From positions 64,001 to 128,000 of the IMG/VR virus record IMGVR_UViG_3300042474_001633: a DNA stretch of 64,000 nucleotides; one strand, given 5' to 3'. The notes under the pieces are model-generated. The model worked only from the letters and a program-made list of their open reading frames with translations. It did not search any database and was not told the origin of the DNA. How positions within the stretch are numbered: position 1 is the first letter of the stretch; every line of letters starts with the position of its first letter. The position numbers and the translations under genes are program-made. This document shows, one piece after another, positions 1 through 42,999 of this stretch. Source of the stretch: a virus.

Positions 1-17
1 CCAATGGTATTGGTGGT

Positions 18-4283: not shown

Positions 4284-7200
4284 GTGGCTAATTCATATTC
4301 CAATTTCGCAGAACGCAGGATAAACAACCTGTCCAAGAATGGCGAATTAGAAATAGGTTTCATTCCCAAAATAGAGACCAAGGCCGAAAAACCAGAAGTA
4401 AATAAGCCTCCAGTAAAATATTCAAACCCGTATGAAGAATACATAAAGACATGGGAGCCGGGGGACGTAATACCGCTTGTTCCACCAGGCAAGAGAATGC
4501 ATTTTTGCACTTTCAACCCAAATATGCTGGATACAGATTCAACATTTTTTAGGTCAACACACAAACATTCCTCTCCGACGAAATTTAAATCGGGTGAACT
4601 GAATGACATCGAGTACAAGGTCCTTGGAAGGAAACTAAAGGACAGCCTTGACTCGCTACTGCGAAGAGCAGCCAAAACAAGAGGCTTATGGGTTGACGAT
4701 AAAAACAAGCTTCGCTGCCCTCCGGGAACACCAGCTGCAAACCAATTTACAGACATAACTGGCTCTAACTGCTTCATACCGTCACCAAGAACTGCCGCAC
4801 AAAGTGGAGCTCGTGCAGTGCGTAGAGCAACAGCTGGCGCAACCCAGATGTCAACCCAGGTTGGCGGAAGAGTTGCTAGTGGATTCGATGCAGCTAGAGC
4901 AAACGCTGAACAAATTAGAGAACTTGGTTTTGAAAGAGTTCAAGAAGCAATGGGGTACGGTGGCAGAATTGCGCCCACTCCACAAATGGTTAGCGATACA
5001 GTCTCGGGAGCCATGAGGGCTACGAGGTTTGGTCTCATACCAAACCCTTCAGCGAGAACTGGAGGCAAGCAGCGTGGAGCACCGAAGGGCGTCGGCAACA
5101 ATGTGTGGCAGCTTGGATTAAAAGAACAAGTCTGGAGAGGCAGAAGAGCCACCGAACTTGCTCGCTCCACAAGGGATAGATTTAATAACCCAAACCGACC
5201 AGACGGACTAAGACTCCCACCGAGTCAGAACTTCCCGGCCGGTAGACCAATCGGCGACATAAGCCAAAAGGCTCAATTCGTTTCCGCAATGGCCGAACTA
5301 TTTCCAAACGTTCCACAAGCAGAAATAGAAGAAATGTTTGACCAAGCAATTCCAATGAGCTTGAGCAGGATGGAAAGGTCAAAACTGAAGGCATCTTTGA
5401 TTCAATACTGGTACTCCTGGATGGAAAATGCAATTGCAAATCCAGAGCAGGCAAAATGGGTTACCTCTTTCGCGATAGATACGGAAATGGGGTCAGCGTT
5501 CGAAGTTAGATTTGATGCATTTGCTCCCTCGCCTTCAACGGGAGGAAGAAGAATTAGCCAAGCAGCATCAAACGCGGCTCAGGGAAGAACCGCAGAACAG
5601 GGTGGACTTCAGTTCTCCCTTGTTATGAATCCATGGGAAATGTGGTCACAGGTAAATCGCTCGGGCTTTGACAGAAATGGTCGAGCAAATGGAGTCGCTG
5701 ATTCTGTTGAGGGTGACATGCACTATTTGGCCAACCATGAGTGGGGCCACGTTGCGCACTTCTCGAGTGTTATGGAGACACTTGGATTCCAAACGCAAAA
5801 TCTTCAGAGATATCCGCTTGCACAAACACTCGTAAAACCACAGCAGGGTGGTCCCCAGTGGCAAAGACAGAAACAAGTCAATGCATGGATGATTGACTTT
5901 AGGCAAGCTGCGAATCCAACAGGAAACAGAAGTATTCAGCTGTTAATCGACTCAGCAAACAATCTAAGCAGAAGGCAATATATTCGCTCTGGAAGTTGGG
6001 GAGGTTCGACCGGGTACACAAGGCAAGACCTGGAGACCGATTTAAACAATTTTCATAATGCGCTAGCTGAGGCAATTGAAAACAACATCACCGATGATGC
6101 TGACGACCAGGAGTTGATGAGACAGTTTTCTGGTGGTGTTTATGCGGCAACATCAAACATAGAAGCCCGCGCAGAGTTCTTCGCATCCCGAAGATTGTTT
6201 GGAGACCCGGTACTAACAGGTGGGCAAACAGGAATCCCATCCACGGTTGATGAGTTCGCGCGAACAATGGCTTCAGCCCAGGGAGCCACACGGACGCAGG
6301 CACAATACCGTTCCCAGATGGACGACATTGGACAGAATGTTTTTAGTGTTCCTGGAAACGCATGGAATATTAGTGGTCGCATGGCTGGTTCTGGATTGCC
6401 ACAACAAAGGCCAACACTTAAAACACAGGCCGTCAGAAGAGCTGTAGACCAAAACTATCCACGAAGCAATAGAAATAGGAGTTCCTCGGCTATTACTGGA
6501 GCAATGAGGTCATCCTCATTACAGCAGAGAACCACTTCTTCTCGTGACTGGAAAAATCAAGACACGATAAGTTCAATAAACACAAACAGGCCATTCACCG
6601 AAGAGCGTCAATCGCTGCCGGGAATGCTGCAATCAGCATTGGGAACTCAGCAATCATCTACACCAATCGTTGGAAGGATGTCCCCGCTGGTGCCAACAAC
6701 GGTCACGGGTGTTAGGAATCGTTTCGATGGCAGCAGGTCTGGTGATGTCGACATCAAGGTCCACGAAATAAACGGCGAAAAAATAGTATTTGATAATCCC
6801 GACGCAATATCAATCGATGACTCATCAATAAAAATTATTCCTAAAAACCCATTTGAGATAACCGGAAAATCCAGAACCAGTAAGGAAGGTCGCGAATATT
6901 CAGAGAAGTGGCTCAATGCCCATCTAGGCAAAGGAGACATGGATTCGAATGATGTCGACGCCCTTCTGTATCGAGCATCACGCGGTGACACGGAGGCAGC
7001 AAAGGAATTCGATGGTTTAGCGGAAAAAGGAAGCAAGCGAGTCTCTGAAGCAGAAGGAAAATTGTATGAACCCATCGAACTTGATGAATACCAGGAAAGA
7101 ACAATAACCCGAGCTGGTCTTGAGGATTTGAGCCTAGATGACTTGTATGTTGTACATGAAACAAGTTACGAGCCAGAAATTGATGAAAATGGAGACATAA

Positions 7201-10200
7201 GCATCTCTCCTCGTTCTAACTTTGAGGAAACAACTGAATCCGGAAAGAAGGTAAGGGTTCCTCGCCACACGATTCACTTCGCATTAAATCACCTTGTTGG
7301 TGGACATATATTTAGGCAGCGCTCAGAAAAAGATACGACTATCTTAATAGCGCCACTGTCTCAGGTGCTAAGAGACAATCCAGATTCACTCGACAATCTA
7401 TATACGCTTGATACTGTTCTTACACCAAAACCTGGTGAGGGGATAAAGCTCAAATCAGGAAGCTTCCGAAGACTCACTGGTACACCAGACAAAGAAGCAA
7501 CAGAAGAGGCTGTTCGTCAGCAGCTAAACGAAATGGGTGCAACAAAGATTTTTAAAGCAGAATCAGCAGAGTCTTCAACTGACGCACAGGATTTAGCAGT
7601 CGGCAAAATAGCCAGGCAGCTGAGAACCCAATCGGGATTGCACGCAAACATCCCAAGCGGACAGGTCGAGCAGTATTTGATTCGCCAGGCTGGAAGTGGT
7701 GGTAGCGCTGAAGTGACGCTTCCGCCTAGTTGGGTGGCCGGAATGAGCAAAAACCATCGCCAAAGACTTGGTGATTCAAACTTCTGGAGCGATGCGAAAC
7801 CAGCCCCAATCACCGGCTTTATGAGAAGCGGCTCGACCCCACAAGCAGGACAGAGCAGAATCAAGAAAAACAAAGACGGTGTGCCTCAGTACCCACGGAC
7901 GCCAACCTACGGTCCAATGCTCGGTGAAACAGAAAATATTTTTGCTGGAGTTAATTCTTGGGAAGAATTTAAACAGAGATATAATGACCAGGAAATAGTC
8001 TTTCTTGATTATGAAACAACTGGTTTAGTATTCGACAAATATGGTCGCGCTACGGAAAACGGAAATCCGGTAGAAATAGGCGCAATAAAAGTAAAAAACG
8101 GACAAGTAATAGACAGATTCAACACATTTGTCAATCCGGGAAAGCCTCTGCAGCAATGGTCTAAAGACAACTTGCGCGACGCAGACGGAAACCCCCTCAC
8201 TGACCAATACCTACAGGGGGCTGAGTCTTTGGAGTCTGGGCACAAAAAACTTGTTGAATTTGCTGGACCAAATGCAATTATGGGTGTTCAAAACGCCGCA
8301 TACGACAAGAACGTACTTGAAGACACTCTCCGTGAAGCGGGAATTGAATGGCAAGCAAGGGGCTGGATTGACCTCAAAGATATGGCCGGCATGACACTCC
8401 CAAGGTACACAGATGAAAATCCGGATGGACCACATAAGACAAATAAAGATGGAACAAAATCACCATCCAATGGACTTGCGGACATAACAAGATACCTCGG
8501 GGTCCCTCTTGGCAAAGAGCATCATAGAGCAGACAAAGACGCTGAAGCAACAGCGGAATCAATGCGTCTTTTGATTGATGGTGCAATTGAAAAGAATTGG
8601 TCAAAAGACGCTCTGGATAGAGCCAAGCGAAGTGCGTACGTCAAAAAAACACAAGACGATTTTGACTCAGATGTAAAAGAATGGGAGTCCGAGCTTGCAA
8701 AGTACTTAGGTGATGGAGTGTCGGGAAAGATGTCGTCATCACCTGCTTTGCGCTCTGCTCCACAGTTTGGCAGAAGACAGTCTCGTGAGTTCTATAGCTC
8801 GGTACCAAACAGTAAATTATGGAGACCGGAAACTCTCGAGCAAAGCGAACCATCACGAATTGCGAAAAGACAAGAAATAATCAAAGACATCAAAGGATTC
8901 ATAGAGTCTGGCGATGGCGACGCAAAATACATGTCTGCAATGAATGGACTTGACCCAGAATTTGCTAACTACATGCGCAATACCGAAGACCGCGAGATTC
9001 TGGCAGACCTTCGTCAGGCAGCAGTTGAATTTCATGCTGGCATCGACCAGAGACCACGTCTAAACGTAAACACTGCAGAACTTTCGAGCTTAATGGAAAA
9101 TGGGCTACGAAGAGACGATTCAGGCAAACCGCGACGTCTGTCAGAGAGAGTAAAAGCCTACGAAGCAGACATTGGAATTTCTCCAGACCTTCCCGACGCA
9201 GAACGCCCAATAACTGGATACATGGTGCATTCCGATGGCGACTTCGCTGAACAAGAGGCTTCATTTAGGGAGTTTTCTAATAAAGTTGATGTCAATTCTC
9301 CACGTTATAAGTTTGACCTTTTTAAGTCAAGTAACGAAAATCGCAACAATGGTTTCAATTCTATTTTTGGTGATGCTGAAATAATTCTAAAACCAGAAAC
9401 CGGCCAAAGGACAGCTTACGGCAACGGTGACGCCCTTGATAATCACATATTTCCTGTCCTGGCAAACTCAACAGATTCTGACGAAATAGGTCGCGCACTC
9501 ATTGACCCTAACGGAAGATTTGACGAACGTGAATCAAATTCCATCGAACTTCTCTATGGAAAATTTAAAAATGATTTCAATGCCTACAGAAAAGATAACG
9601 GTCAAACTCGTCCACGGATAAGCGGAGCATGGGGAAATAGGGACGCCCTGATTATGGGCGGAATAGAGCCGAGTGATATCGAAGAGGTGAGGGTTCCGTT
9701 TAATTCTCTAGATATTACAAACTCAACCACGCCGGAAGAATTTGCAAAAAAACCAAGAGAACTTAAGTACTTACCCGTTACTGAGTATGTAGACGAAGGC
9801 CCTGCGATTGCTTCCTCCGGCGCAGGAGCACCACCGCCGCCACCACCGCCAGATGACCCTGACAACAACATGACAGACGAAGAAATTTCTAAAATTCAAG
9901 AAAAAATGAAACGGAGTTTTGCGGCCACAAAAGAAGAGCAAAAAATAATCGAAGATATTTTGTCTGGGTTAGAGCCAATTAATGCGATACCCAAAAATTT
10001 AGCCATACGAATTGACAACGTTAACGAATACAGGAAAATCTCAGACGACTTTAGAAATCTAAGAAGAATTGAAGAAGCCGAAAGACTTCAGAGATTAGCG
10101 AAAGCAAGAGGTTTTAATCTTGCAGTAACCAATGACTACGGATTGGACGTATTTGATGGGCGCTCATTCTCAAGTAAGGCTCCCAAGTCAAAAACATCAA

Positions 10201-10705: not shown

Positions 10706-10777
10706 CATGTATTTAAATCACAGTATTTTGCGTACAATTAAATTCAGGGGTTTATTCACTGGTTGCAAGGAGACCAA

Positions 10778-11422
10778 ATGAGTCTGGTCAACAAAATTAT
10801 GAATGGCGATGTCCAAATTGCCGTCGACACAAAAGCAGCAGGACCTGCTGGCGCCATAATACCTCAAGAAAATATTACCGGTGATGTACTCAGGGGGTAT
10901 GGACCGCGCAGGGGCAATCTTGAGCGCCTCCTTCGTTACTGGAGACCAATTATGCGCAAGCCTGGCGGGTTCAGGAGATGCCGAGTAATTCTTGCCGACC
11001 ACCCAGAGCTTTACCCACTTGAAAGAATATGCGCCTGGTTGCATCACGAAACAACTGGTCTGTGGCCAAATGAAGGGTGCCACCACCCAGGAATGAAAAA
11101 CTGTCGCAAGAAGATGCGCGGGGTTGTTCGTGGCTCACTCTACTCTGACCAGGAATTCAACAATAGAATGCGCAAACTGACATCGCGCAGTGGCAGGAAG
11201 GCTGTAGAATTTACGGGTATACGCTCGGTTGATGAGCCCTTTTCCCCAGTCATCACGCAGGATGATTGGACCCATGCAGTGAAAGTATTACAAGATTTCA
11301 TAGACATGGAACCGGACTTCGTTAAGTACGTGGAAGACGAAAAAAACTGGGAACACGTCGATGGGTATGTTATCGATAAAAACGAATTGGAGTCGCTAGA
11401 TGCGAACAATATTGAGTTCTGA
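10778..11422 (+). CDS. phage head-associated protein (L..YW..PGGF.RC..CAWLH..G.WP module)
   Basis: AAGGAG RBS before ATG at 10778; the motif type is recalled from actinophage head proteins. Confidence 0.65.
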   Translation: MSLVNKIMNGDVQIAVDTKAAGPAGAIIPQENITGDVLRGYGPRRGNLERLLRYWRPIMRKPGGFRRCRVILADHPELYPLERICAWLHHETTGLWPNEGCHHPGMKNCRKKMRGVVRGSLYSDQEFNNRMRKLTSRSGRKAVEFTGIRSVDEPFSPVITQDDWTHAVKVLQDFIDMEPDFVKYVEDEKNWEHVDGYVIDKNELESLDANNIEF

Positions 11423-13451
11423 TTGCTGCCCGTCCCAGGAGATTGTAAAAGTTAGACATATTTCTCCGTCTTTCGCACTATCTAGAACTAACCTTTTTAC
11501 AGCGCCAATTTATTCTGTCAACGAAAGAAAATCAATTATTGATTTCAAATGCGCAATGCAGCGCAGAGGCGTAAAAAGTGCTTACGAAATAAAAGTCGGA
11601 GCGACTGGCTCGGACAGCAGAATTCTTCAATCTCTCCAGGGACTTGGTTCTGCCGTTACTCCGGGAAACTTTTCCAACGTGCGAAGTCCTGTTAGGTCAC
11701 GAATTTACTCAGCTCTCACCCCGGGTGGTGGTCGAGGAGTTCCTGGTGGATTTGGCGCACTCAAGCCAGAGCGTGGATATAGATGTCCAGAAGGGTATCA
11801 ATTCGGTGGAAGATTTACTGACTCACGTTTTTCTACATGTGGAAAACAACTATTCGACCTTCCTGGAATCATAGGCGCAACAATCGCCTCTGTTTTGCGT
11901 GGCTCTCGTCGTAGCCCATCCTTCCAGGATGTCGGTGGCACACGTGTTAAGCCAGTGTCTGTGGCTGGTGACGTAATCCAGTCGCGCGCGCCACAAATTC
12001 CAAAAGTTACTGGTGCTAACAGACAGCGCAGAAATCGCTCCGTCGATGACATAGTCGGACAGATGTCGCAGGTAAATGAAGCCTACATGAGAATGGTGCG
12101 GCGCGACGGCTTCATCTTGGAGCCGGTAGTTTCTCCTGCAGTTCTTAGGACAATCCCCGACAACAGAGATATGGAAGGCGCAACATTCCTGATGAATGCT
12201 TTGACGTCGGATTCAATTGGTGGAGAAGAACTTGGAATGCTTTCGAATACCGGCATTGAAAAACTATCCTATGTCCTATCTGGAGGTTCAACTGTTTCCA
12301 TCGGGAAAGCTCGCCCGCTAACAGTTGGAGAACGACGCAAGCTTGGTAGAACTGTGGCCACGGCGGAGAAGCTGCGTGCCAATGATGACCCGGTTCAAAA
12401 ATTAAAATTCATCGCAGAGGAAATGGGCGATGGAATATCTTATGAAGAAGAGTTTAAAGGAATAAAAAACCCGAATGAAATCATTAAAGTCAACCTCCCA
12501 GCAGGTGCTGGCAAGCGAACAATGCGCAGGTGGCATTATGAGACTTTCTATCGAAAGAAAAAGAAGTCAAAGCAGTCCGCTCGCTCCACAGAGCTAGAAG
12601 CAATTCCCGAAGACGATAAAATCAAAGACCTTGCTTCTGCGGTCCGTCACCTTAATAATGGTGGTTCGATTGAGAATATTTCATCGAATGTTCGGTCGGA
12701 GGCTGTCAGTCGTAGCGCAATGTACAAGACTGGAAAAATACGAAACGGTGTATTGATTCACGAGCGTGCCGATGGACAAACGGTGTTTGAAATAACACCT
12801 GATGAGAACTTTGAACATCTGGGTGCCGCACTGGCATCAGAACTACAGCGCTCAATGGGTCTTATTGCGCCAAAGGTTCGTTTGGCTGGTGCTGGAAAAA
12901 AGCGCAACTATATGCTTGGAGAAGCTCAGGATGCAGAAATGTTTGGCGTTCAAGATAGGACAATGGACATTGCTGACCTCCCCTCGGAGGACGTTGTCGG
13001 AATTCTAATGTCCGACTATCTCACCGATACCAGGGATAGAAACCCTTCCACGATTGCGCCAATACGCGTCGGTGGCAGAATGCGTGCAGTTGCTTCTTTG
13101 AATGGAAGTGCTGGTCTCTCGGGTATGACCTCGACGGAAATACGCGGAAGACGACAAATGCAAGTAAACGATTTCTTCAAGAAAAAGCAGCAGAGAATAT
13201 ACGCTGAATATTTTGAAAAACTTCAGGCCCAGCAGCGCAAGAGGGCGTTAATGCTATTTGATAAGCTGCTCGAACAAGCAGGAGAATTTGATTTTAAGCG
13301 ATTTAGACAAATGCTCTCAATAGATGGACAGCTTTCTGAAGCAGAATTACTACATCTTGGGATTGTCGAAAAAATATTTGAACAGCGTGTCAACATACTT
13401 AAATCATCATCTGGAAATTTCAAGAAACTGATTGGCTTATCGATTAGATGA
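11400..13451 (+). CDS. 683-aa protein with RCP..FT..C leader motif and C-terminal degenerate HipA/PI3-4-kinase-like domain
   Basis: MGLIAPKV and DYLTDTRDRNPSTI resemble the D.L..N.DRH..N catalytic loop. Confidence 0.65.
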   Translation: MRTILSSDCCPSQEIVKVRHISPSFALSRTNLFTAPIYSVNERKSIIDFKCAMQRRGVKSAYEIKVGATGSDSRILQSLQGLGSAVTPGNFSNVRSPVRSRIYSALTPGGGRGVPGGFGALKPERGYRCPEGYQFGGRFTDSRFSTCGKQLFDLPGIIGATIASVLRGSRRSPSFQDVGGTRVKPVSVAGDVIQSRAPQIPKVTGANRQRRNRSVDDIVGQMSQVNEAYMRMVRRDGFILEPVVSPAVLRTIPDNRDMEGATFLMNALTSDSIGGEELGMLSNTGIEKLSYVLSGGSTVSIGKARPLTVGERRKLGRTVATAEKLRANDDPVQKLKFIAEEMGDGISYEEEFKGIKNPNEIIKVNLPAGAGKRTMRRWHYETFYRKKKKSKQSARSTELEAIPEDDKIKDLASAVRHLNNGGSIENISSNVRSEAVSRSAMYKTGKIRNGVLIHERADGQTVFEITPDENFEHLGAALASELQRSMGLIAPKVRLAGAGKKRNYMLGEAQDAEMFGVQDRTMDIADLPSEDVVGILMSDYLTDTRDRNPSTIAPIRVGGRMRAVASLNGSAGLSGMTSTEIRGRRQMQVNDFFKKKQQRIYAEYFEKLQAQQRKRALMLFDKLLEQAGEFDFKRFRQMLSIDGQLSEAELLHLGIVEKIFEQRVNILKSSSGNFKKLIGLSIR

Positions 13452-16400
13452 AAAAAGCAACGGTAATTAGAGACAAGCTCTCTGGTCAGCCTTTTGCAAT
13501 ACTTCTTCCATCCGATGGAAAGAAACCAGTTGCATTCGGCTCATCAGGCCAAGGGAGACTATGGGCCGACTGGGCGATGTCGTCCAGTAGCGGAGCGCTC
13601 GACAATCTCGATGTGTCTCTTACCGTCGAGAAAGATGTTGAACTAACCGATGAATTTATAACCTCACTCGAGAGCACTTTTGAAATTGCCGACTTAAACG
13701 AACTTAAATTCACCATCTCCAAAAAGGCGTTGCTGGTCATCGAAAAAGTAAAATCCCTTGCCGGAGAGGAGCCTGCAAAATATGAGCAGATGAACGAGGA
13801 TAACGAGGAGGAACTCGTAGACAGATGGCCAGTAGTGGATGCTGCGATTGCGACCATCGATGTTGCCTATAAACAAAATGCTCTTGACTACAAGGCAAAG
13901 GCTTTCAACCTTGATTCAAAACGCAGCTCAATGCTGCTGCAAGTCAAGGGCGTAAGAGCCATGTGGGACCCAAACATGCCTGGCGGGGGTGGATGGAGAT
14001 GCCCTGACGAAACGGTAAATGGTGGCCAGTTCACCAACAGACTTGGTCGTGGGTGCACATTTGGGGCAATACGCAGAATAGGCAGGGCATTGATGACTGC
14101 CTCCCTGAAGGACATTGCAAAGGGTTTTGATGATGATGAGGTGGCCTTTCCGAGCGTCTACAGGGCTGGAAAGAAACTAGACGAGGTTGGAGAAAAACTC
14201 AAAGAAAGAACAGGGAAAAAATACAGCCGCAGAGCGATGAGGAGGGCTGACCAGCTCAAAAAAGAACAAGCTCGTCAGATGCTAAAAGAATCTCGCCCAA
14301 CGTTTAGACAAAGATATGAATCGCTTGGGCCAACAGTAAGTAGACGCAACAGGGTTCTAATAGCCGCCTCTCAAACCGCCAGAGACGTTGCCGATGACCA
14401 GGCAACCAGAGGTTTTGTTTCTGAAGCCAGGAGACGCACTCGCAGACAAGGCATCCCCACAAGAAAAACACCAACAAATGATACTGAAACCTTCTCAAAT
14501 GACGACACCATAACTGGCGCCATGAGCCCAGAGCGAAGGGCTCAGATTGCGGAAAAACTGAGAACAACAGCACAAGACATTTACGAAGGTCGACGTTTTG
14601 CAAGACGACAAAAAAAATCGGAACGAAAACAGACAAAAAACTCACCACAACTCAATGAAAACGAACTAGAGCGCAGCAACAGGATTGCTACAAAGCAAAT
14701 TGATTCAATACTTGGCGTACTCAAGCAAAGAGACTCGGGTAGAGAGTATCTTGCCGGAGTTGTGAATTCAGCGGTGAGCAATTTGAATAATTGGGCTAAA
14801 GAAAAAACTGATGGATTAGGGTTTCCTAACAGGGTTTATACAGAAGCCGACTTCGACGATAACGATGTACAGATAATCGAACGGGCTCTGCGTGAGCTAA
14901 AAGAAAACCCAGACAAGCCATTTGCGGACCAACAGTGGGGTAGATTTGCGCAATTATTCAAGCTTTGGGGAACGCACAACTGGGCGGTAAATCGCTCTAT
15001 GCCACTGCAAAATAACGACGGAAATGTAATTTCAGATTATATTCCAAGATTAAAAAAACCTTTTGGGCAAACAGATGTGTTTCCGGAGCTATGGGTAGAT
15101 GGTCGTTCGGTCAATGAGTTTGGATTGCGCACGCCTGAGGAGTTGACCGAATTAAATAACGCCCACACTACTCTTGGTTTTCTCGACATTGACACAAAAA
15201 TTCCAGACAAAGACCAGACACTCTCCATGCTCGGCGGATTTTACTCTGACGAAGAAGGTGATGTTTTCGGTGGCTACTACAAGGAGTTTATCGCCGATGA
15301 ATCAAAATTTTCGGTTTCGGCGAGAGAAGTTTTGGCAAATGGGCTAAAGCGCAATCATGAAATAGACTTGCGTAAGTTTTTACATAATAAATTTTATGGC
15401 TCAACCGCGTGGAACTCTCCAAAGAAAACCACAAACAGGGAAACTGAGATAACGCCATCACAGTCCATTGTTGAGCGTTTCATGCGTGGACTAAGTCCTT
15501 CGCGTGACAAAGAACAACGAACTCTTGAAAGAGAACTCAGAGGAAAGACGCCTCGCAGTACAACCGAATTGCGCGAAAGAATTGCTCGACGACAGAGACG
15601 GCGAGCAAAGGAGCAAGCTGGTGAGCTGGTCACGTTTGAGGATTATGCAGACTACGAGCAGCTCAAAATAAACAGACCAGAACTTGTTGGCGGAAAGCGA
15701 AAGCTTAATGAATTTACAGAACCAACACCTCCGAATAAAACCAGAATGCGTGCGCGCGAACGCTGGAGGACCAAACCATCCGAAGAGGGTCGCCCAAAGG
15801 TCGACATCATCCTGCGAGACATGGAGCCACACCTATCCTCAAGCGGAGATGTAAATGAAAACACCATCAAAGGTCTTGATGACCTAGATAGATTTTTTCA
15901 AGCGGAAGTAAATCATGCCGCAATCGCCAGACTGCGAGAGTCCGCCCTGACTCCATACGACACAGAAAATCAGGATGAACTCAAAAAGATTTACGGAGAC
16001 TGGCTGCGCTCATTCAACGACTCAGATGCGGACCCGCAGCCGGGTTCCCCATCAAACATGGGACTCACTGAGCAGACATCGATATCGTGGGTTGTTCCCG
16101 GTGAACCAGGGTTTCTCACCAGGAATCTGGATGAAGCATGGGAATTTGCAACTTCAAAATCAGAAGAAGATAGCAATTTCGACCCACGCACGCTAGACGC
16201 GGTAGGGGACAGAATTGTTCTCCGAGCAAATCAATTCAACGGACGTCCTGTGGTTTACGTAGAAGATACGGAGGCGCAGGTTGCTCACCTTATGACTCCG
16301 GATGGAAGACACCTGATGTCGATTGTGACATCGCGGGACGACTCAGACGAGCCAGGAAAAGTTAGATTTATCAGCGGCTCCGCGGCCTTGGAGCAAATCG

Positions 16401-19837: not shown

Positions 19838-20217
19838 TGAGCAATGCAAACATCGACTCAGACGATGCGAGATATCAGTACAATCGCGGAAAATTTATAG
19901 ACAAATACTTTGACCTGTTCGAAAACTTGAATTTTCCACCTATGTTCATCGCAGGTCAAGACCTTGTCGCAGGTGAATATGAAATGGCTCTCAAGGAAGC
20001 GTACATTGATGGATTATCAGTACCCAGAATAGATTTCGTCACCGGTGATGCAAAACCATTTTCCGAATTTGAATCTAAATTCAAAAAAGAAATAGATGAA
20101 GCAAAGAAATTTAGAAGTGCAACAAACGACAACCACCGATTGGCCTTGGATTTGTATGCAAAAGAAAATGGTGAACTTCACGAGTCGGAGTACATGAAGC
20201 AACAAAAGAGACCGTAA
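19837..20217 (+). CDS. hypothetical protein
   Basis: TAATG translational coupling at both ends. Confidence 0.65.
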   Translation: MSNANIDSDDARYQYNRGKFIDKYFDLFENLNFPPMFIAGQDLVAGEYEMALKEAYIDGLSVPRIDFVTGDAKPFSEFESKFKKEIDEAKKFRSATNDNHRLALDLYAKENGELHESEYMKQQKRP

Positions 20218-22571
20218 TGAAAAATGAAGAAGAGTTAGTCCCTAAGCTTTTCTCTAAAAAGAAAAAACGCACACGTAAGCGTTCTGCTGGAGAACATCGT
20301 GACGGATGGGAAAATTTGGGGGAACGTGGCGTTGTCAGAATAGATGCAAGCCCTGGTGGTGGAATAACAGGGGTTAATGTCGGCGGTATTTCTGGAAAGG
20401 GAGTGCCACGGGTCGGCCGTAGATTGGGCTCAATAGGTAGGGCTGCAAGAAGGAAATTTCAAAAAGTTTCACGAGATGGTGACGGTGATGGAAAATGGAC
20501 AAACCCCCTTACGGGTGAAGACAATTTGCCATACAACCCTTCTGGAAAACCAGACGCGACTGATTTGCCTGGTGCAATAAACCTACCAAGCCCCAGCGAC
20601 ACAAATGGTCGGCAACGACGCAAGTTTCTTTCAGATATGGAAAATCACGTAATGAGATTGACCACTGGGGGGATAGATTCTCTGGAAGTTGAAATTGAAG
20701 ACAGAATCACAGCAATGCAGTTGAGAGGCCGGGTTCACTACTGGAATAGACCGGGAACCAGGGATATAAAAACTTCTTACAATGGAAATAAATTCAGAGC
20801 CTACGCTTCAACTGGTCCTAAGTCTGGGAAAAAAGTAACAATTAGCGGAGCAATGGCGTCCGGTCCACCCAGGAATGAAACACCCTACATCGGTGACGAA
20901 AAACTGATTGAAGAGCAGGCAAACCAAACACAAAAGTTTTTGCGCTGGAAGCAGAATGACGATTGGAAAAATTTCCACATTGAGCATTACGACTGGTGGA
21001 CATTCCCAATAGACAAAGGCTCTGGACCGTACGGATTTATGTACGACGTCAGTGGCGAGCCACTTGAAAGGCTTAAACAAAACCAGAGTTATCTTGCATC
21101 GATTCGAGATGCAGCTTCCGCCTACATGGAAAGCCTTGGATGGAACATGAGAACCGGGTGGTGGATTCCAAATCCAAGACCAGACCAAAAACCTAACGGG
21201 AACATAAATCAACAGCGTTTGTTTAAAATAGGACGGTCGCTTCAAATACACGAACTGAATGATTCTTTCAATTCTGTGCGGCACCTAGTGGAGACACTGA
21301 AGGCTAATGGGGTGCGCGTAGGGAACGATGAATACTGGTCAAATCCGAGCAAATACACACCAAGGTCTCGTTTTAAAGATTCTGATGGCGTTGTTGGAAG
21401 GATGGCTCTCGGAATTAGTCCAAAAGCATTCAAGGGTCACCAGGAGTTAATTGACCCAATGGATGCCAGCTTCAGGAGGGTGTGGAATGATAGAGATGAA
21501 CGAAATGCAATTAAAAGCAAAATAAAAAATGATTTGACTTTTGATTGGAAGGACGAAAACTCGCGCAGGGATTATATTAATAAACTTTGGAGAAATGACC
21601 TAACCCCAGAATACGCAAATTTTGCTAAAAAGATTTCTCCGCAAACAAGAAATTCTGCTGATGGAAAAACCGGTCTAAACCCAATACTGAAGGAAAACCT
21701 TGGCCTCATAAATGATTTGGGTGTTCACTGGACATCACGAACGGGTGCGCGCGGTCAAGCAACATTTCGAGACCAATATGGCTCCCTGTTCGGGCACGCC
21801 ACAACACCAATGGGAGAGGACGCATACGCCAATCAAGTCAGAGATATTCTAGGCTATTTTGCACCGACGATTAATCCAGATTTGTATTGGAATAGATTTG
21901 AATCGTGGATTAGGAATCCATTTTCTGTAGTTCGTGATAAAAAGACCGGAAACGACATAGGAGTGCGACTTTACTTCAATGACGACAGAGATGAGCTGGT
22001 TAAAGAATTTAATAAAAGAATTACACGTCTCTATGCAGCTGTCGCCGAGGCATACGGCCATAGGCCCGAAGACAAGCCTTTTATTCCCTTGCCCGAACAT
22101 GAGGAAATGGACACCTTTTCACAAGATGATGTTTTGGAGTACATCCGAAAGCAGATGAATGCGTTGATTAATTCCCCCGAGCTGCCCATGCACCAAACAC
22201 CAACGGTTGAAGCGTTGAGAAAAGAACTTATTGAGTACATGTCGGTCAGCAATCCACAGAGCATCGATAATTTGGCGCCGATTACGTCAACCTGGTTTGA
22301 GGAATACCTCAAAAGAAACCAGCCTGGATATCTAAAGCGCACGCTGAATTCAAATCCAAACTTTCTGCGTCGAAGCCTCGCTGACGACCTGGACGCAAAC
22401 AAACGCAGGGACTTGGTGGAAATGATGGAGATTGTCTTGTCTTATCCTGGTAATTCGAACCTGAGCGCAGAGCGACTCAAGCGTTCTCACTTTCCAGAAA
22501 AAGATTTCACAGAAGAGATGATTCAAGAAGAAAGAGATAGGCAGGTGGGGATAAAAAATGTCAACAGTTGA
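20217..22571 (+). CDS. 784-aa protein with central OGFr/DUF1810-like domain
   Basis: HYDWWTFPID and RLFKIGRSL resemble OGFr-N motifs (H.YIQW.FP, RITRILKSL). The domain is bounded by ISGAMA and VVGRMA. Confidence 0.65.
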   Translation: MKNEEELVPKLFSKKKKRTRKRSAGEHRDGWENLGERGVVRIDASPGGGITGVNVGGISGKGVPRVGRRLGSIGRAARRKFQKVSRDGDGDGKWTNPLTGEDNLPYNPSGKPDATDLPGAINLPSPSDTNGRQRRKFLSDMENHVMRLTTGGIDSLEVEIEDRITAMQLRGRVHYWNRPGTRDIKTSYNGNKFRAYASTGPKSGKKVTISGAMASGPPRNETPYIGDEKLIEEQANQTQKFLRWKQNDDWKNFHIEHYDWWTFPIDKGSGPYGFMYDVSGEPLERLKQNQSYLASIRDAASAYMESLGWNMRTGWWIPNPRPDQKPNGNINQQRLFKIGRSLQIHELNDSFNSVRHLVETLKANGVRVGNDEYWSNPSKYTPRSRFKDSDGVVGRMALGISPKAFKGHQELIDPMDASFRRVWNDRDERNAIKSKIKNDLTFDWKDENSRRDYINKLWRNDLTPEYANFAKKISPQTRNSADGKTGLNPILKENLGLINDLGVHWTSRTGARGQATFRDQYGSLFGHATTPMGEDAYANQVRDILGYFAPTINPDLYWNRFESWIRNPFSVVRDKKTGNDIGVRLYFNDDRDELVKEFNKRITRLYAAVAEAYGHRPEDKPFIPLPEHEEMDTFSQDDVLEYIRKQMNALINSPELPMHQTPTVEALRKELIEYMSVSNPQSIDNLAPITSTWFEEYLKRNQPGYLKRTLNSNPNFLRRSLADDLDANKRRDLVEMMEIVLSYPGNSNLSAERLKRSHFPEKDFTEEMIQEERDRQVGIKNVNS

Positions 22572-22674
22572 CACCAGGCTTTCACTACTCCCGCCATCGA
22601 GCACTCGTAAAGTAAGATTGTTTCATCTGCTTCTATCGCAAATCAGCGATATTCGAGAAAATTAACGAGCCTCC

Positions 22675-25600
22675 ATGGATGATTCCGCAGAAATGCAAAA
22701 CATAGAAGAAAAGGTGATTTTTGGCGCTCGCGTCGTGAATCCATCCGACCCCGACGTGTTTGACAACCCGGATTCGGCCAGAGTTAGAGCAAGACAAATC
22801 GGTTGCATTGGAATCAGAAGATATAACAACCGAAGCGGAGCCGCATCATGGATGCCATGCACAAACGAATCTGACTACAGGAGAGTATCTGGCATCGGCC
22901 ACTCAGGTAGAAGATTTAGAAGACAAGAAATTGAGCGCGAGGTACGCAGGGTAATCGGCGGTCGTGGTGGTCGCAAGGTCGACTCCAAAAGCGCAAACTA
23001 TACAAAACCAGAGGTTCGAGAAACTCTAAAGAAAAGAATTATGGCTGGCTCAAAGGGTGGAAACCCGGGTCAGTGGAGTGCAAGGAAGGCTCAGCTACTT
23101 GCAATCGCATACAGAAAAGCTGGTGGTGGCTACAAGGGTGGAAAGACAAAAAAACAACGTTCACTTTCGAAGTGGACAAAACAAAAGTGGCGCACTTCTG
23201 ACGGCAAACCTGCTCGTCGTGGAAACGTGACGCGACGCTATCTTCCTGCAGCAGCATGGAACCGTCTAACTGTCGGCCAACGAGCCGCAACGAATAGAAA
23301 AAAAATTCAAGGGAGCAGAGAGGGACGTCAGTTCGTTGAAAACACAGAAGCAGCGAAGCGTGCACGCAAGCGTTCGACCCGCGGGCAAAAACACATCGAG
23401 TTTTACGAGGATTTCGAGTTTAAGGCAATCGGCTCACGGATAGGAAAAGTAACAAGACAAAGAAATTTTGGCTCATCCACTGGTGGGCGGGTAGCTAGAA
23501 GAATAGGTGGAAAGCTTCGCGGTGCATTCGCTACCTTCGACCCCAGTGCAAGAGACGCAGATGGAGACAACATCGTCCAGGAAGGAACTATTCAAGAACG
23601 ACGTATTGGTACGAGAATCACCCAGGCTGCACGGAGAGCTGCCGCAAGTACACCAGACAACATTGGAAGAATACGACGTCAACCACAGGTTGATGAAGCA
23701 CGTGCTTTTGGTAGAGCTGAACGACTTGCCGACGGAAGATACGCGACAACGCTTCCTTCTAGTATTGCGCGGACACAGCCTTCACCAAGAAAAATTCGAA
23801 GAGGTTCTACACAGACTAGACGCATCGAAGAGACCAAGCCGAAAAAAATACGTCAGTCAAAGCGCCCAGAGACCAAGCCAACAACGGAAATCCGTGCGGC
23901 AGTGCGTGATGCAAAACCGGAGCCGAAACTATACCCACCTCAGTACGAGCGTGACGCAATTCGAAGCATTAGGGATAGTCGTCCAGAAATATACAGACAG
24001 TTCATCACTGGTGAATCAACTGTTGCCGAAATTGCAGACCGATTTGATGTCGTTAGGGACGAAATACAACAAGCGATTAACCAACATAAAAAGTTAAGAA
24101 AATCGAACCGGAATAAATTCACAAACAACAATCCACGATTAACCAGAGCAATTGAAAAGTTTTCCAACTCCAGAAACGCATTCACGGAAGCAATATCCGA
24201 AGGCAGGTTCCGAGACTGGGACTCCATGGTTCAATACGTTTTTAGAAATCCTGATTCATCAAAAAATCGCGACAATATGGTTCAAGACCTGTTCGACACA
24301 TTCAAGACAGGAAGGAACCCGGACCGCTCAAGCAATATAAGTCTTGGCTATGTGCCAAGTGTTAGAGAAGATGACAAGAGACTTGTAAAAACTTTCTCCG
24401 ACTCACGCAAACCGCGACCAGGATTCCGCGGTCTCGACCAGTTCGAAGTGCAGCCAAAGAGAACTACTTCTGCTGCTTCCTTTGAACAGCGCACTCCGCG
24501 TTCGTACAGAAGAGACGACTTGATTGCAGACGCAATGGCTGGTGGTTACACAATCACCGGCAAGATGTCGGGCTCAATGACGCCAAAACAGGAGCAAGAG
24601 TGGAAAAGGAAAGAATGGAAGCGCCAGCAACTCAAAGGATTTGCCATCGACCCGAATGCTTCTGCGAAATTCCCTTCATTAAACGCAGTTCTTGCTGGCA
24701 GAGACGTAACCAAGTCCATAGAGGCGCTTGATGCTCTTGACGATACCCAATTGGATAATTTATGGACATCGACAATTGGAGATATATCTTCGGTCCCTGG
24801 GATGTCCGTTCCTGCATATCAAGCAAAGAATGCGCCACTGTCCCCGAGGGAGCTTGCTCTTGCCGCATCAGTTAAGAGACCGCTAGTTAAAGCGTTTGTT
24901 GATGAATACAAGAAGTTTAATGCAGGTGGCCTAATTGCCGGCCTGGATATCGATGCAATGAGTGATGCTGATATTCAGTCATTCTTCAATACTTTTGTTT
25001 TGCCAGAGTTAACAAACACAGGCTCGCCTTCTGTGCAGGACGTCGAGCAGGCAGCACAACTTCTTCCAACCCAAGCAAGACTGTCAGATGCAGAAAGACT
25101 ACTAGCGGCGCTACCGTCATCATTTCAAACTCTTGAATACAGAATGAAGGTCGGTCGCAAGGTGCTTGCCGAAGAGGGGTACGACGTTGATACCCCAGAA
25201 TTCGACGCAGCTCTTCAAAGATTCCTCGATGAATCAGAGCAAAAGGACTTAGACAATTTCAACGAACAGCTAACCACTTGGCTCAATGGCGGGAAGCCAG
25301 TAAAAGCAGTTAAGAAAATCCCAATCAATCCGGATACAAACGAACCTTACACAGAACAAGAACTGCGAGACCAGATTGACGCCGTATCCGAGGCAATTGA
25401 AGTAATTCAGGAAAATTTTGACCCTGAAATGTTCAATGAATTGCAGCAGATAAACGGCATAACTTCTCTCCTAAATGAAGCAATGGCTCTTGAGACATTC
25501 CTAAATGACCCTACAAAAGTTCCCGACGAAAGCCTTCTGCCGATAAACACATCAACTGGGAAACCGTATACGTTGCGCGAATGGATTGAGTCTGGGGCAT

Positions 25601-28600
25601 TCAAATTGTTTCGTATGTACGACAACCCAGCTACAAAAAAACCATTCACAGACGCAGAACTTATGGAAGTTCTCTTCAACCTTGCATTACAACGCAGAGA
25701 AATAGAAAACAAGATAGGGCCATCAATCCTTTCCGACTTCAACAAGCTCGAAGCTTTCAACAGAAGGCTGATTAACGCACTAGCTGGTTTAGCAGAAGAA
25801 GACGAAGACGAATTTGAGCTATCGCCCGGAGACCTGCTTGATGGCGAAGAAGAAGAAGGAGAAGAAGGAGGCATGCAGCCAGACCCTCCCTCGATTGAGG
25901 AAATGCAGCAAGCAAACCAAGACATCCTCGACTCCCAGGCGGAGCGCCTACAAAATCGCCCTGAAGTTGGCGATGAGTTCACCAAGGATGATGTGAAAAA
26001 TATACGCGACACAATATCCTCCATCAAGAAAAACCAAGAACCAACCACTGCAGCTCCAGATACTGATGAATACTGGGAAAGATTCGGTCCTTATGATGGC
26101 GACAAAAATCACCCTCTCAACCAGGTAACTGACGCCGAGGGTAAAGAAGTTGGTCTTAATTCAAAAGAATACCAAGTAGATAAAAATTTGTGGAACGAGT
26201 ATCTGGCTGGAAACTATGCACAAGAATGGTCAGACATACACAACAGTCACATAATTGCACGATATACGGACGTGCCGGAAGAACTTAGTCGTTACAACGG
26301 CGAGTTCGAAGAGGGCGCAGACCCAGCGTTGATTGACCCCAATATTCGGTGGGACAAACTAATCGATGTGCTTCAGCAGACAAACCCTGAACTATTCCGC
26401 AAAGACCCGAAAACTGGCGAGGTTGTTGGGGAGACACTCGATAATCTTGCTCAACAACTTGGTCTGCAGAATTATGGTGGGGCATCATTCTCAGCAAGAG
26501 CAGGACGAGTGACTGATGCGTCTGGAGAGATTATTGATACCAGCGGACCGCAATACAGAAGATTGCTTGGTGAACTCGCAAAGGATGAGCGCTTAAAGCA
26601 AAATGAGCAGTATTTGGGTTCTACGAAAGCTGCCGCAAAAGAACGTGCGAAGCTTTGGAACTTATTTGAGGTAGGGACTTTAACACCAGAAGAAATTGCT
26701 TTTCAGGAAGAAATTCGAGACGTAAACACTGTTGTCCAGGCATTGCATATGCACGAGGTTGATAACAGTATACCAAGTGCAAACAGGACCAATCTCGATG
26801 GAGTGGCAAGAACGGCCTTTCAGACAAGAAAAGCGGCATTCGAAAAAGCCAAGACAAAAAAACTAATTGAAGGTATACGCGAAATAGCAAGACTTTCAAA
26901 CCCGAATGTCTCCACTAGGGCTACAGCTAGTGACCTTCAGAACACAATCGATAGGGCAATTACGTATCTTGACGAAACAATAAAGAAGATTGGAATTGAA
27001 TACGACCAGTTCAGAAGAACGAAACAGATGCTTCACGGCATGATTTCTTCCCTACTAAAAACGAGACCGGGATTATTCGAGGTCGACCCCAAAAATCCAA
27101 ATCAACGAAATAGATTCGGCCAGACCGGTTGGAATAGGGCCAAAGAACCGCTCCTTAGGTATATGAACCGCATCTATAAGTGGAACGAAGAAATGTTTGG
27201 CTATGTCGACAGGAGAACAGGCGAGACGAAGCGCGGGCTCTTGCGCATCCTGGTCGAATATGAGCGCTCTCTTGCTCTTCAGACAGGCGACCCGGCTGGT
27301 TCGTCATCTACAACCGCAATTTTTAATCGTGCGCGGCAAAGAAAACAAGAGCTCGAGCGATTCAAGGGAGAATTGCAGTCGCTATCGCAACAGGCGCAAA
27401 GTCAGGGCATTACCGGATTCATGAAGGGTGCTGGGGCGCTTGGACGAGCTGAAGATTCTGCTCGCAGAGGTGCCCGGAGGGCCGCTGAAGGAAGATTCGG
27501 ATTTGCAGACCCTCGAATTCTCAAGAGGTATGACCGCGCGGGATTTGATGTAACCAAGCCAATGCTTGGAAACGCATCGGGGTTTAATAAGCGATTCAAT
27601 CGGGAGATACAAGAGGCAATTCGTAATAACAATAAAAGCATGGAGAGTTCCCCGGCGTTTAATCGGCTTAACCAGAATGAAAAGTCTTACATGAGACTAC
27701 TAGAAGCCGTGAACAATACACCAAGGCTCTTTGGGAATGAAGAAAATCCTGCTCGCTTACGTCAACAAACGGGTCGAGTCGGTCAAACTGGTTTGAACCC
27801 TAGCGTTCGCACACCAAGATATGTAACTCCATACGTAAACAGAAGACCAACAGAATTTTACAAATCCGGCATAACAGGCAGAATGGAAGGCACTTCTCGC
27901 AACGAAAGAATTAAGAATTTTGGCGGCAAAGACAAACTAAAGATTGGTGGATTTCTAGAAGTTGTGCCAGAAGAACTAGAAGACGGTCGCTGGTACATGG
28001 TCAATAGGCATGGTGAAATAATGTCACCAGAGTCTTATACAAACGAAGACGCCGCCTACAAGGCGAGCCTGGCTCTTGGGAGAAAATTTAGAGAACAGCA
28101 ACGTGGCCAAGAGCTTCCACAAAACACAGCTGAGTGGGAAGCTGCGCGTCTTGGACTCAGACAAAGTGGTTATCGAGCTGCCTCGGTTCACCGTCAAAAC
28201 CTTGCAGACATTGCGCCAATCAAGGCTGACGGAACAAAAAACGAATACATATTTGCTGTTGACAAACGCCCCAAGCAAAGGGCTGGAGACGCATTAATTA
28301 TCAGGAAGAACCCATCTACTGGCGCGCTCGAGGCATTGGTCATCGAAAGAGGTTTTGGCCCACATAGAAAAGATGGTGAAGGAACCGTTGCTCTTCCTGG
28401 TGGATTTTTTGACCAAAGCAAGGGAGACGCGGACCTTTTCGATTCAGCTCTACGAGAAGCCCTCGAAGAAACAGGACTTCGTCCGGAAGACCTAATTACT
28501 TCACAGAAGCTGGGAACAATCGATTCCCCAGACTGGGACCCTCGTTTTGCCGAAGGCATAGAAGTTTCTGCAGTTCTCGTGGAAGTTCCATCCACTTGGG

Positions 28601-31600
28601 AACCAACAGCTGGCGATGATGCAGAATCAGCTCGATTCGTTCCACTGGTAGACCTTGCCAGTGGAGATATTCCACTTGGATTCGGACACGCAGCGTGGTT
28701 CGATGCAGCTTTTTCCGCCCATGAGGACCCGGAATTATCGTCCCTGGGAGAAAAATTCTCCCACCTCAACTGGTTGGCAAGACAACGTCAACAGAGAATA
28801 ATACGAGACGCTAACGAATTGCGCGTGGCCTACAACGCCGAAAGACTTGAGCGAGACCTAACTTTATTTGACCAAGAAAATCCACGCCTAAAACTTTTTC
28901 CAACAGAACTTCCAGACACAACAAATGGGGGCTGGAGGCCAACTGGTTCGGAGTTTGATGCAATATCCAAGCCGAGAGTGGCAAGAATCATCAAAGAAGC
29001 ACATGCTCATCTAGACGCTCTGATTAACACAGAGAGAGCCAAGCGTGGATTGCCACCAAAGAGAACCAAGAGAAATCTTCCAGAGATACCGCCTGGGGCA
29101 GTATCTGGTGCGATGCGTGCAGCAATGACCGAAATGGGCCCTGACGAATTTGACAAGGTAAGTCGTCTTGACAACGGAAGAGATAACCCAGCTGCAAGAA
29201 AGTTTATTGATGACGTAATCAACTTGCGTATGGCCGGTATGGATAAATACTCAATCGCTAAATTCATGTCAGATAAAGCAGCGCTTGAATTCGCGATACG
29301 CGACAATGGAAATTCCCCAGAACCAAAAGACCTCATTAGAAGTCATAATTCAAAAGCGGATAGAGGCAGCGAGCTAGCCGGCCTGGCTCCGACAGATGAA
29401 CTTATTTTTAGAATAATCTCTGAAAGAAAACTCAACACAACTGGCAACTCACGAAGCAGGTTCTCCACCGCGGTTCGTGGAGTCGAGCCGCAGGATAAGT
29501 TTACGAAGCAAAGAAACGATGCAGCAAAAGACGTGATGACGCTCGCCCTTGAGGGGATGTCAACAGCAGAGATAGCAGACATCTTGGATATTTCCAAAGG
29601 GAGAGTTGGAAGCACCCTTCGTCGAATGGGCATGCAAGACAGGGATGGCTCTACAACTATTGGTGATATGAGTGATTCAATTCGCCGCTATGAGCAGTCC
29701 CCAAATCAAAAAGCCATGTATGTGGACTCAATGTATAAGCGGATGTCTCTTTCGGAAATATCCAGAAAGTACAAACTTACCGAATCAGAGGTTAGAGAAT
29801 CGGTTGAGTCATACAGGGATAATGTGGAATCGCTGCAGCCGGAACACCACGCCATCTACCGTAAAGCGCTAACCGATATCGAAGCAGATGTACTTTCCCG
29901 AGACGAAGAGCAAATTACAAGAATGAGACTCGATGGCCTTTCGATTTCTGATATATCTGAAGTCACAAAAATGGACAATGGACGAGTAAAGACCATAGAG
30001 CAGCGAGCTCTTTATAAACTTCGCAGAAACAATTCTGATGAATTTATGGGAGTCAAGCGCGACCTCGACGTAATCAACTACAGAAGAACGCCAAGCATGA
30101 ACTACATGGTTGGCGGTATGACCGATATTGAGAGAGATGGCGTCTACTTCAGCGCGAGAGACCTTAGAGACTTCCGAAACAACGACAAAGACATATACAT
30201 AATGAATCAGCATATGGGGTCTTCCGTGAAGGATATTGCCTCAAGATTCAAGATGTCAGAAGATGCTGTGCGCCAATCAATCGAATCCTACTCGTCAGCA
30301 ATTGAAAAAACTGACACATTCAAACACAAAGCTCTTCGGCGCGTTCTCGCGACGAATAATTCCTCCCTTAGTGGCGCGGACATTGACATTATAAACATGC
30401 GTAATGACGGTGCATCAATCGACGATATCGCTAGGTATTTTGAGGTCCCCTCAGAGTCCGTGAGAGCTCGACAGATTGCTGTTATGTCCAAGTTGAACAA
30501 CTCTGATGGAATCAGCGGCGCAATGAAGGGTGTTCCGAATATTGAATCACGCAATTTATACAGAGAGCTTGGTGTTGATGAATCAGCTCCCCAACGCGAG
30601 ATTGACGATGCTTTTACTTCTGAGGTTTCTGGAATCATGTCCAGGGCGATGAAAAATGAACCGAACTCGGTTGACCGCTTGTATACAATCTCGGAGGCCT
30701 ACAAGGTTTTGTCCAACCCTGCAGCCAGAGAGTCGTACGATAACTTCGACTTTGACGACAACGACGACTTTATGGAAATTCCAGAGCTTGATAAGTTGTT
30801 TGACTCTTGGCCAATGTCTCAATATGTTGAGCCATCAACAAATAAGATTCGTCCGCCGTGGGTCGCAGACGCGATACTTGGCGAATACAGACAGTACGAC
30901 AACTTTGTCAAAATGCCGCATCATCTTGGCTCTGATGAAATAACTGATGACATCGACGATGGTTTCTTGGGCTTTAACATAAATGATTCCGATAGAGACC
31001 TGGCGATTAGCGACATGTATTACCGCGAGCCGATTCCTGGAACAAAAGAATGGGATATGGGCCAGCGAGCGGCTGACCGAGCTCGAGCCAGCGGAGACAC
31101 AAGAATAACGTTTGACAAAGACGGATTTATTTCTGGGTCCACTATGAATTTTGACCCAAGATTTGATGACCCTCAGTCTCCGGTTTATATCGGTGATAGA
31201 TACGGCGGCCCCCAAAAAGGAGCACGGCTAGACCAGCCAATGATTTCTGGTGGAATGGATTCTGAGTCAAAAAAAAAATTCAGCAAACTACTCCCTGAAA
31301 GTCTGAGCGAAAGCTCCACTAGATATCCAGGTAATTCCCGTCCGTCCAAAAAGGATATGACGCTCATCAAGACCTCGTCGGATAGGCTCCGAAGTACGGA
31401 AATTCTCCCGATAGCCGAAGTCTTTGACTTTGAATTCAGCGGACCAGATGGCGAGCGTTACGAATCGGGCATCCTGACAATTGCACAAAGACCCGTAGTT
31501 GTCGTCCGTTTTTATGACGATATCAATGTTCCCTTCTACATAAGTTCTGGACGCGGCGGAAAGAAGGATGTCGCTACGGGCAAATGGTATCCATTCTGGG

Positions 31601-42994: not shown

Positions 42995-42999
42995 TAGTC

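Follow-up and report, generated by a model that had tools for sequence, protein, structure and literature searches.

The window analysed here is a stretch of 64,000 nucleotides (nt) from an uncultured phage. It spans bases 64001-128000 of an IMG/VR virus record that is 160,282 bp long and rated complete, and it encodes a phage head module with giant open reading frames (ORFs). Three of these, ORF A (2026 amino acids, aa), ORF E (784 aa) and ORF F (3915 aa), are phage "polyvalent" cargo proteins in which a short peptide motif ending in G-x-M recurs. The motif is enriched in the cargo, lies in linkers, marks the points at which cassettes are exchanged among relatives, and changes in concert throughout the genome from one lineage dialect to another. 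Judged from the sequences, it is probably the proteolytic junction code of one phage-encoded endopeptidase, which is predicted to cut there. Head modules were compared among genomes G001-G005, which share the layout of the window (M-type), and G006-G010, which have the commoner layout (L-type).

The pattern [IVM][STAV]G.M was scored across the cargo ORFs, which comprise 9,996 residues. Every copy listed in the original prediction was found at its coordinate with its peptide, and there were four extra matches: ITGYM at nt 9210, IVGQM at nt 12051 (in a 683-aa ORF), MSGSM at nt 24565 and VSGIM at nt 30625. The cargo ORFs held 22 matches compared to 0.53 ± 0.72 (maximum 4) in 2000 residue shuffles, an approximately 40-fold enrichment. 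Elsewhere in the 160-kb genome, 39,813 residues held two matches, both in the tail tape measure (Fisher p = 8e-14). The motif count was clearly above both the shuffled controls and the genome background.

Codons at the sites were diverse: all four Gly codons were used, and Ser was encoded by TCN and by AGY. The DNA flanking the sites was at random identity. These results support the earlier claim, made from synonymous codon variation, that selection acts on the peptide. Among 114 M-type sites the consensus was I/V, S/T, G, R/A/K, M. A Ser/Thr modification site is unlikely, since Val or Ala fills the Ser/Thr position in 15 of the 114 sites (13%).

Features of the head module, all on the plus strand and in window coordinates, are as follows.

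1..2336, starting 309 nt before the window: 881-aa protease ORF; Pfam Peptidase_S78, DUF6321 and further C-terminal domains
2669..4213: 514-aa ORF without family match or motif copy; conserved in M-type and L-type genomes alike, with the protease on one side and ORF A on the other
4284..10364: ORF A, 2026 aa, cargo polyprotein; conserved sites at nt 5001, 6369, 6492, 6666, 7809 and 8718, unconserved copy at 9210
5124..6368 (aa 281-695): HExxH domain, first cassette of ORF A, sites on both flanks; candidate zincin protease
7998..8558: DEDDh 3'-5' exonuclease (RNase_T; Pfam 4.8e-11, PHROG 192); cassette bounded by ITGFM at 7809 and VSGKM at 8718
10763..13451: ORFs B (219 aa) and C (683 aa), kept in all relatives; IVGQM of C at 12051 unconserved
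13448..19837: ORF D, 2129 aa, no family match; lone ITGAM at 14510 unconserved
20217..22571: ORF E, 784 aa; ISGAM at 20841 and VVGRM at 21390 enclose a cassette with an OGFr-like lead only
22675..34422: ORF F, 3915 aa, cargo polyprotein; sites at 24553 (with 24565), 27409, 27871, 29101, 30106, 30511, 31243, 31951 and 33688
28312-28656, 29482-30024, 30553-30741 and 32242-32676: Pfam domains of ORF F, respectively NUDIX, sigma-70 region 4 array, DnaJ-like and Zeta_toxin
34768..36108: HK97-type major capsid protein (Pfam Phage_capsid 7.9e-44) with an N-terminal coiled-coil (delta-like) region

Cassette borders and folded domains

Sites are named here by ORF and residue. At aligned positions in ORF A the motif was conserved at A240 (22/26), A696 (27/27), A737 (21/23), A1176 (13/15) and A1479 (24/24), and Gly and Met were invariant at the aligned A sites. 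Conservation was also seen at E209 (3/3), F627 (5/5), F1579 (6/6) and F3672 (3/3). Across 23 homologues of A, ranging from 37 to 98% identity, sites recurred at approximately 240, 700, 740 and 800, and beyond these each module border had one. Three copies were not conserved: A1643 (1/24), C218 (0/5) and D355 (nt 14510; 0/2). These, together with F2651, are probably chance copies. Because its single copy is unconserved, ORF D does not count as a punctuated polyprotein. Punctuation had been proposed for four giant ORFs; the 2026-, 784- and 3915-aa ORFs bear it out and the 2129-aa ORF does not. ORF D (13448-19837) is kept in all M-type genomes and absent from the L-type, has no conserved junction site, and matched nothing in Pfam and PHROG searches.

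Comparison of the window with its relatives by BLAST gave module borders that matched motif copies in both partners. The segment A1176-1477 matched residues 2265-2554 of a G004 protein, a segment that starts at that protein's own motif. The zeta-kinase module of F begins at a motif in G005, the C-terminal module of F (F3672-3893) was located in the E homologue of G004, and two F modules occur in swapped order in G001. Of the proteins P0003 and P0004, one has a 407-aa cassette, flanked by two sites, that the other lacks. Overall, 34% of the internal ends of high-scoring segment pairs lay within 25 aa of a motif (<=25 aa), compared to 13.5% for random positions. Homologous giant genes have thus gained, lost and reordered cassettes, and moved them between genes, at the motif. 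The suggestion that new domains could be added there is borne out in relatives, where modules were exchanged, inserted and moved at exactly these points.

Structures of A 1-1200 and F 1700-2899 were modelled with AlphaFold2 (AF2) from shallow alignments of 22 (A) and 9 rows. In the A model, residues 281-695 and 804-1169 formed folded blocks, and sites 240, 696, 737, 795 and 1176 lay at block edges in coil with a predicted local distance difference test (pLDDT) score below 50. Sites 1733, 2143, 2478, 2613 and 2857 of the F model lay in low-confidence segments, and F2651 (nt 30625) lay in a helix of the J-like domain. Coil with pLDDT<50 held 10 of the 11 modelled sites, and such segments make up 42% of modelled residues (binomial p = 0.0012). 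Motif flanks were hydrophobic-poor (0.209 vs 0.274, p = 5e-18). The proposed coincidence of motif and domain boundary was therefore seen at ten modelled sites, in coil between blocks, and failed at F2651, inside the J-like domain.

Several of the domains said to fall between consecutive copies were recovered by Pfam, namely RNase_T, NUDIX and Zeta_toxin. The DnaJ match fell just short of its cut-off (25.2 vs 27.8 bits). The Pfam search gave no match for the OGFr-like and ART-like regions, where the leads came from a language model only (OGFr_N 0.92, DRAT 0.86). The content of F comprises NUDIX, several sigma-70 region 4 units, a DnaJ-like domain, and Zeta_toxin with a helix-turn-helix.

Two parts of ORF A have features of their own. 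Mini-cassettes of 41 and 58 aa (aa 701-794; 6384-6665) lie between sites 696, 737 and 795, are kept in nearly all homologues, and carry a basic stretch, RPTLKTQAVRRAV, that hardly varies. Cutting at the sites, if it occurs, would set small basic peptides free from these mini-cassettes. The cassette between 795 and 1176 (aa 838-1072; 6795-7500) gave weak fold matches of ADP-ribosyl type at Z ~4, to CopC, a tRNA 2'-phosphotransferase and an ADP-ribose-binding protein. A Foldseek search of the 1200-residue A model against the PDB returned nothing at E <= 0.001.

Lineage dialects and sites outside the cargo

Among giant ORFs upstream of the capsid gene, eight distinct ones carried G-x-M and most others carried LSSG, which was observed 96 times compared to 2.5 expected. 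The two dialects were mutually exclusive by locus. Whole G-x-M proteins also kept to one sub-dialect: L[STV]GxM in P0006, LTGAM in P0030-P0035, VSGKM in P0025 and P0041, LSGKM in P0028, and, in others, ISGRM or GP[VI]G[KS]M (L070). The giant ORF of L070 has 8 copies of GP[VI]G[KS]M.

The L-type relatives belong to the same phage family, with capsids 73-83% identical, a shared gene order and LSSG also in the tape measure. Their S78 protease is the N-terminal domain of a polyprotein of 2,943-3,694 aa with 4-14 LSSG copies, whose domains include UvrD, sigma region 4, ArdC-N with MPTase-PolyVal, and WYL. In the window, by comparison, the protease ORF is short (881 aa) and unfused to cargo, G-x-M stands in place of LSSG, and three extra giant genes (D, E and F) replace two small genes before the L-type capsid gene. 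In G009 (L100:856-11547) and G010 (L102:848-11932) S78 is fused to a polyprotein of ~3,600 aa with 10-14 LSSG copies. A Pfam search of the N-terminal parts of L-type A-like proteins found nothing.

Sites were also found outside the cargo. Synteny identified a 1648-aa minus-strand ORF (genome 44931-49877, outside the window; L104:432-5378) as the tape measure, since the genes for sheath, tube and chaperone precede it. Motif sites are found in this ORF at aa 44, 582 and 829. At the first two of these positions, ten relatives showed either peptides of the L[ST]GAM type (M-type genomes) or [LF]SSG (L-type genomes). The original prediction had described the code in the head module; these conserved, co-switching sites show that it extends further, and because the tape measure carries them, a reader restricted to the prohead does not explain the code. 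The tape measure had no Pfam or PHROG match; some of its segments are hydrophobic or Gly-rich, and its C-terminal part shows an HxxxD...HxH pattern like that of LAS-type cell-wall peptidases.

Relaxed sites were present in the protease ORF (TMGRM at nt 753-767 and ITGRT at nt 1632-1646), and a protease-ORF site, NP-x-[STAM]-G-[RK]-M-G, was kept in 6/6 M-type genomes. In the capsid, an alignment of 57 relatives placed TIGQM (nt 35074-35088) at the junction of the variable region and the conserved block. The form [ST]IGxMF stands at the end of the delta-like region in almost every capsid, whichever the dialect, and may or may not mark the maturation site. Eight residues upstream of it, L[ST]S[RHS]E was found in 33/34 L-type loci and LSS in 0/7 M-type capsids.

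The dialect changes in concert at all sites of a genome, including two tape-measure positions. This concerted, genome-wide change suggests one phage-encoded reader acting in trans, most likely a protease.

The cargo ORFs are bracketed by the S78 prohead protease gene and the HK97-type capsid gene, all on the plus strand. The Peptidase_S78 Pfam score was 28.0 bits against a cut-off of 21 for the part inside the window, and the full domain was aligned across 11 genomes. Both flanking identities had been proposed before and were confirmed by Pfam. The capsid shares 47-49% identity with capsids of Gordonia and Brevibacterium phages, which makes an actinobacterial host likely. There are 390 relatives in IMG/VR; for the 80 of them listed, capsid identity spans 73-100%.

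A second motif, RCP-x8-F[TS]-x6-C, lies near the N-termini of A (4713-4790), C (~11780-11850) and D (~13997-14070). It was present in 11/11 genomes, including L-type A-like and C proteins, and may be a common carrier or head-incorporation element. Residues 9-227 of F (window 22700-23355) are homologous to stand-alone proteins of 221-361 aa just upstream of the L-type capsid gene. Giant F thereby resembles a small head-module carrier to which cargo has been added. Possible further codes were noted in relatives: RGMAS three times in L080, and RFG(R) six times in each of L081 and L029. A search for ORF A in the fragment contigs L070, L081, L029, L080 and L078 matched the RCP region alone and gave no tie to an enzyme.

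A Cys/Gly-rich stretch, GCGCGGACGG, lies at window ~1060-1090 (protease ORF aa ~455-470) between two copies of a repeated domain and is longer in relatives. Directly 3' of the capsid gene is an Asp/Asn beta-hydroxylase-like ORF (36190-36732; Pfam 2.9e-14). Window positions 41069-57108 hold replication and nucleotide genes: ribonucleotide reductase, GP88, ParB_N, an AAA_25 helicase-like ORF, DUF932, a PAPS-reductase-like ORF and an SNF2 helicase.

Candidate enzymes and competing explanations

In the explanation we favour, A, E and F would each consist of a conserved carrier region followed by a string of independently folding, exchangeable cassettes, including the HExxH domain, the DEDDh exonuclease, Nudix, the sigma region 4 array, the J-like domain and the zeta-type kinase. 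Disordered linkers would join the cassettes, each linker bearing [ILV]-[STAV]-G-x-M as a recognition site at which a single phage endopeptidase would free the cassettes as separate proteins. The same endopeptidase would also trim the protease ORF and the tape measure, and enzyme and sites would co-evolve, giving rise to the lineage dialects.

Several points weigh against this explanation. Cleavage, packaging and ejection are all inferred. Our literature search found no S78 cleavage rule against which the motif could be set. With shallow alignments, low pLDDT may in part be a sign of sparse information and not of disorder. No Pfam family covers the HExxH domain, and its fold matches are weak. 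Dialect and lineage are confounded, and co-variation with either protease is not independent evidence. Should the sites be cleaved, the HExxH cassette of A and the S78 prohead protease would be almost equally likely as the enzyme, the former very slightly ahead, with any other enzyme a minor prospect.

The HExxH cassette may be the reader, acting on all ejected proteins (cargo, protease ORF and tape measure) in the cytoplasm or after delivery, a possibility that we put forward tentatively. It is the first A cassette in every M-type homologue, with sites on both sides, and the AF2 model of A 1-1200 shows it as a folded block. Residues H485, E486, H489, E627 and E631, that is, the HExxH motif and downstream Glu residues, were invariant in alignments of 22 and of 6 sequences. 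The best fold matches were zinc peptidases, below the level that the tool calls clear: anthrax lethal factor (1yqy_A; Z 6.6, root-mean-square deviation 4.0, 188 aligned residues, within the noise range of the tool) and, weakly, a Bacteroides zinc peptidase (4l7a_B; Z 5.5). A reader of this kind would account for the tape-measure sites, and such a role has already been proposed for zincins of polyvalent proteins (PMC5512222).

Relatives of the HExxH domain formed 25 clusters among 1.84 billion proteins, in this phage family alone. The domain was clearly carried by 24/25 clusters, which use G-x-M dialects; the marginal 25th, P0042 (E 8.6e-4), has no HExxH and carries LSSG. The LSSG phages have an unrelated HExxH region: kinship of the M-type domain with the L-type region was rejected (hhalign probability 5%), as was kinship with MPTase-PolyVal (0.4%). 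However, this association of domain and dialect is confounded with phylogeny, and a Pfam search gave no match and hence no curated peptidase family. The domain could instead be an effector against host proteins, and activity before packaging would detach the cassettes from their carrier.

In the version closest to the original prediction, the S78 prohead protease may instead be the reader, cutting cargo inside the prohead as T4 gp21 and phiKZ gp175 do with internal and ejection proteins; we put this forward just as tentatively. The cargo genes have the S78 gene on one side and the capsid gene on the other, L-type relatives have S78 joined to their LSSG polyprotein, and the protease ORF has its own conserved site in all six M-type genomes. 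Motif-like peptides are found at the end of the capsid delta-like region, where L[ST]S[RHS]E follows the L-type as described above. In the S78 domain 15/150 columns were type-specific, two of them close to the catalytic Ser. There is also precedent, since PMC5694885 and PMC10052503 describe SPN3US and phiKZ proteases that cut many head proteins at a short motif. Against S78, the tape measure is no prohead component and carries co-varying sites, the domain is 73-83% identical across two very different dialects, and the L070 cargo has G-x-M yet the L070 capsid has SIGDAF.

It is unlikely that the motif remains uncut and serves in docking, loading or threading, as a tether to the capsid interior or scaffold or as an ejection handle. 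Linker location, concerted dialects and presence in the tape measure would fit a binding partner as well as they fit a protease. However, each cassette border has one copy, down to the mini-cassettes of 41 and 58 aa, and the HExxH domain has one on either flank, as is typical of polyprotein junctions. No candidate binding protein was evident, and proteases are encoded beside the substrates or, in L-type phages, within them.

Cutting by a host protease after injection is very improbable. All putative substrates are expected to enter the cell, which is consistent with such an enzyme, but related phages with capsids 75-83% identical use incompatible dialects, which a conserved enzyme is not expected to drive, and sub-dialects are homogenised within a genome.

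That the motif has no peptide function, and reflects chance or composition, DNA recombination linkers or internal translation starts at Met, is scarcely credible: some copies (A1643, C218, D355 and F2651) are probably chance and a few sites with GGA-NNN-ATG have a faint ribosome-binding-site look, but the enrichment, the diverse codons and the retention of sites at 37% protein identity argue otherwise, recombination linkers are ruled out by the random identity of the flanking DNA, and internal starts are rejected because the Gly codon is merely 3 nt from ATG and the LSSG dialect has no Met.

Relation to known systems

Polyvalent proteins are giant proteins with 2 to 15 unrelated conflict domains, encoded beside packaging or capsid genes and predicted to be delivered together with the DNA (PMC5512222); Iyer, Burroughs, Anand, de Souza and Aravind (2017) proposed their processing by zincin peptidases (PMC5512222). 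ORFs A, E and F resemble them in combining unrelated domains in one chain (HExxH and RNase_T in A; NUDIX, sigma, DnaJ-like and Zeta_toxin in F), in their phage capsid gene context from S78 to the HK97-type capsid, and in that L-type relatives carry the hallmark pair of ArdC-N and MPTase-PolyVal. Unlike the hub pattern of polyvalent proteins, the genome of the window lacks PF18818, a hub domain that is frequent in the class and not obligatory. The polyvalent-protein paper (PMC5512222) has no junction peptide, and the word "linker" has 0 occurrences in it, whereas the borders here carry an explicit lineage-specific code that is also present in the tape measure.

Internal proteins of T4 are cut by gp21, and the substrates are packaged and injected. 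The phiKZ, SPN3US and T4 proteases are of T4 type and cut after Glu, at [LI]-x-E or A/S/G-x-E. Unlike this T4-type (S77/S80) processing, the module here encodes an HK97-type (S78) protease, and Glu is absent from the motif. The substrates also differ from those of T4 and the giant phages in being multi-cassette polyproteins whose code is common to a tail protein. The likeness to the phiKZ gp175 and SPN3US gp245 systems lies in one head protease with many head-internal or ejected substrates and a short consensus (PMC5694885, PMC10052503); cutting in the present family is predicted.

As in adenain sites and the polyproteins of RNA viruses, a short site recurs between functional units. The resemblance to adenain put forward in the original prediction did not hold up. 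With a cut in front of Met, the hydrophobic residue would be P4 and the Gly P2, in keeping with (M/I/L)-x-G-x. Unlike the adenain consensus, (M/I/L)-x-G-x|G or (M/I/L)-x-G-G|x, however, the motif has an invariant Met rather than Gly after x, which would place Met at P1', and the virus here is a double-stranded DNA (dsDNA) tailed phage. A six-frame search of the genome with PF00770 and PF02902 found no clan CE peptidase at E <= 0.1, although a very divergent member is possible.

The explicit junction peptide that appears to bound cassettes, lineage-specific and common to the tape measure, would be new, as none was found described in the literature. Also new here are the G-x-M dialect, its sub-dialects and a layout in which the protease is unfused to cargo. 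A bolder extension, which at present we would call speculative, is that a co-delivered or capsid-resident phage protease cuts every ejected protein, its own carrier included, at a private code drifting with the enzyme, so that related phages are mutually orthogonal and one carrier domain loads dozens of exchangeable effectors. Such a system, if real, would be a dsDNA-phage counterpart of the polyprotein expression of RNA viruses.

Processing of polyvalent proteins has been proposed since 2017 with no site or enzyme defined. This family offers candidate sites, two candidate enzymes and natural specificity variants, and the question thereby becomes testable with simple co-expression reporters. 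Mutually orthogonal protease/site pairs could serve as laboratory tools. If the code holds, it provides a rule by which ~9,000 residues of unannotated giant ORFs per genome can be split into effector units, and such units in hundreds of related metagenomic phages become studiable singly.

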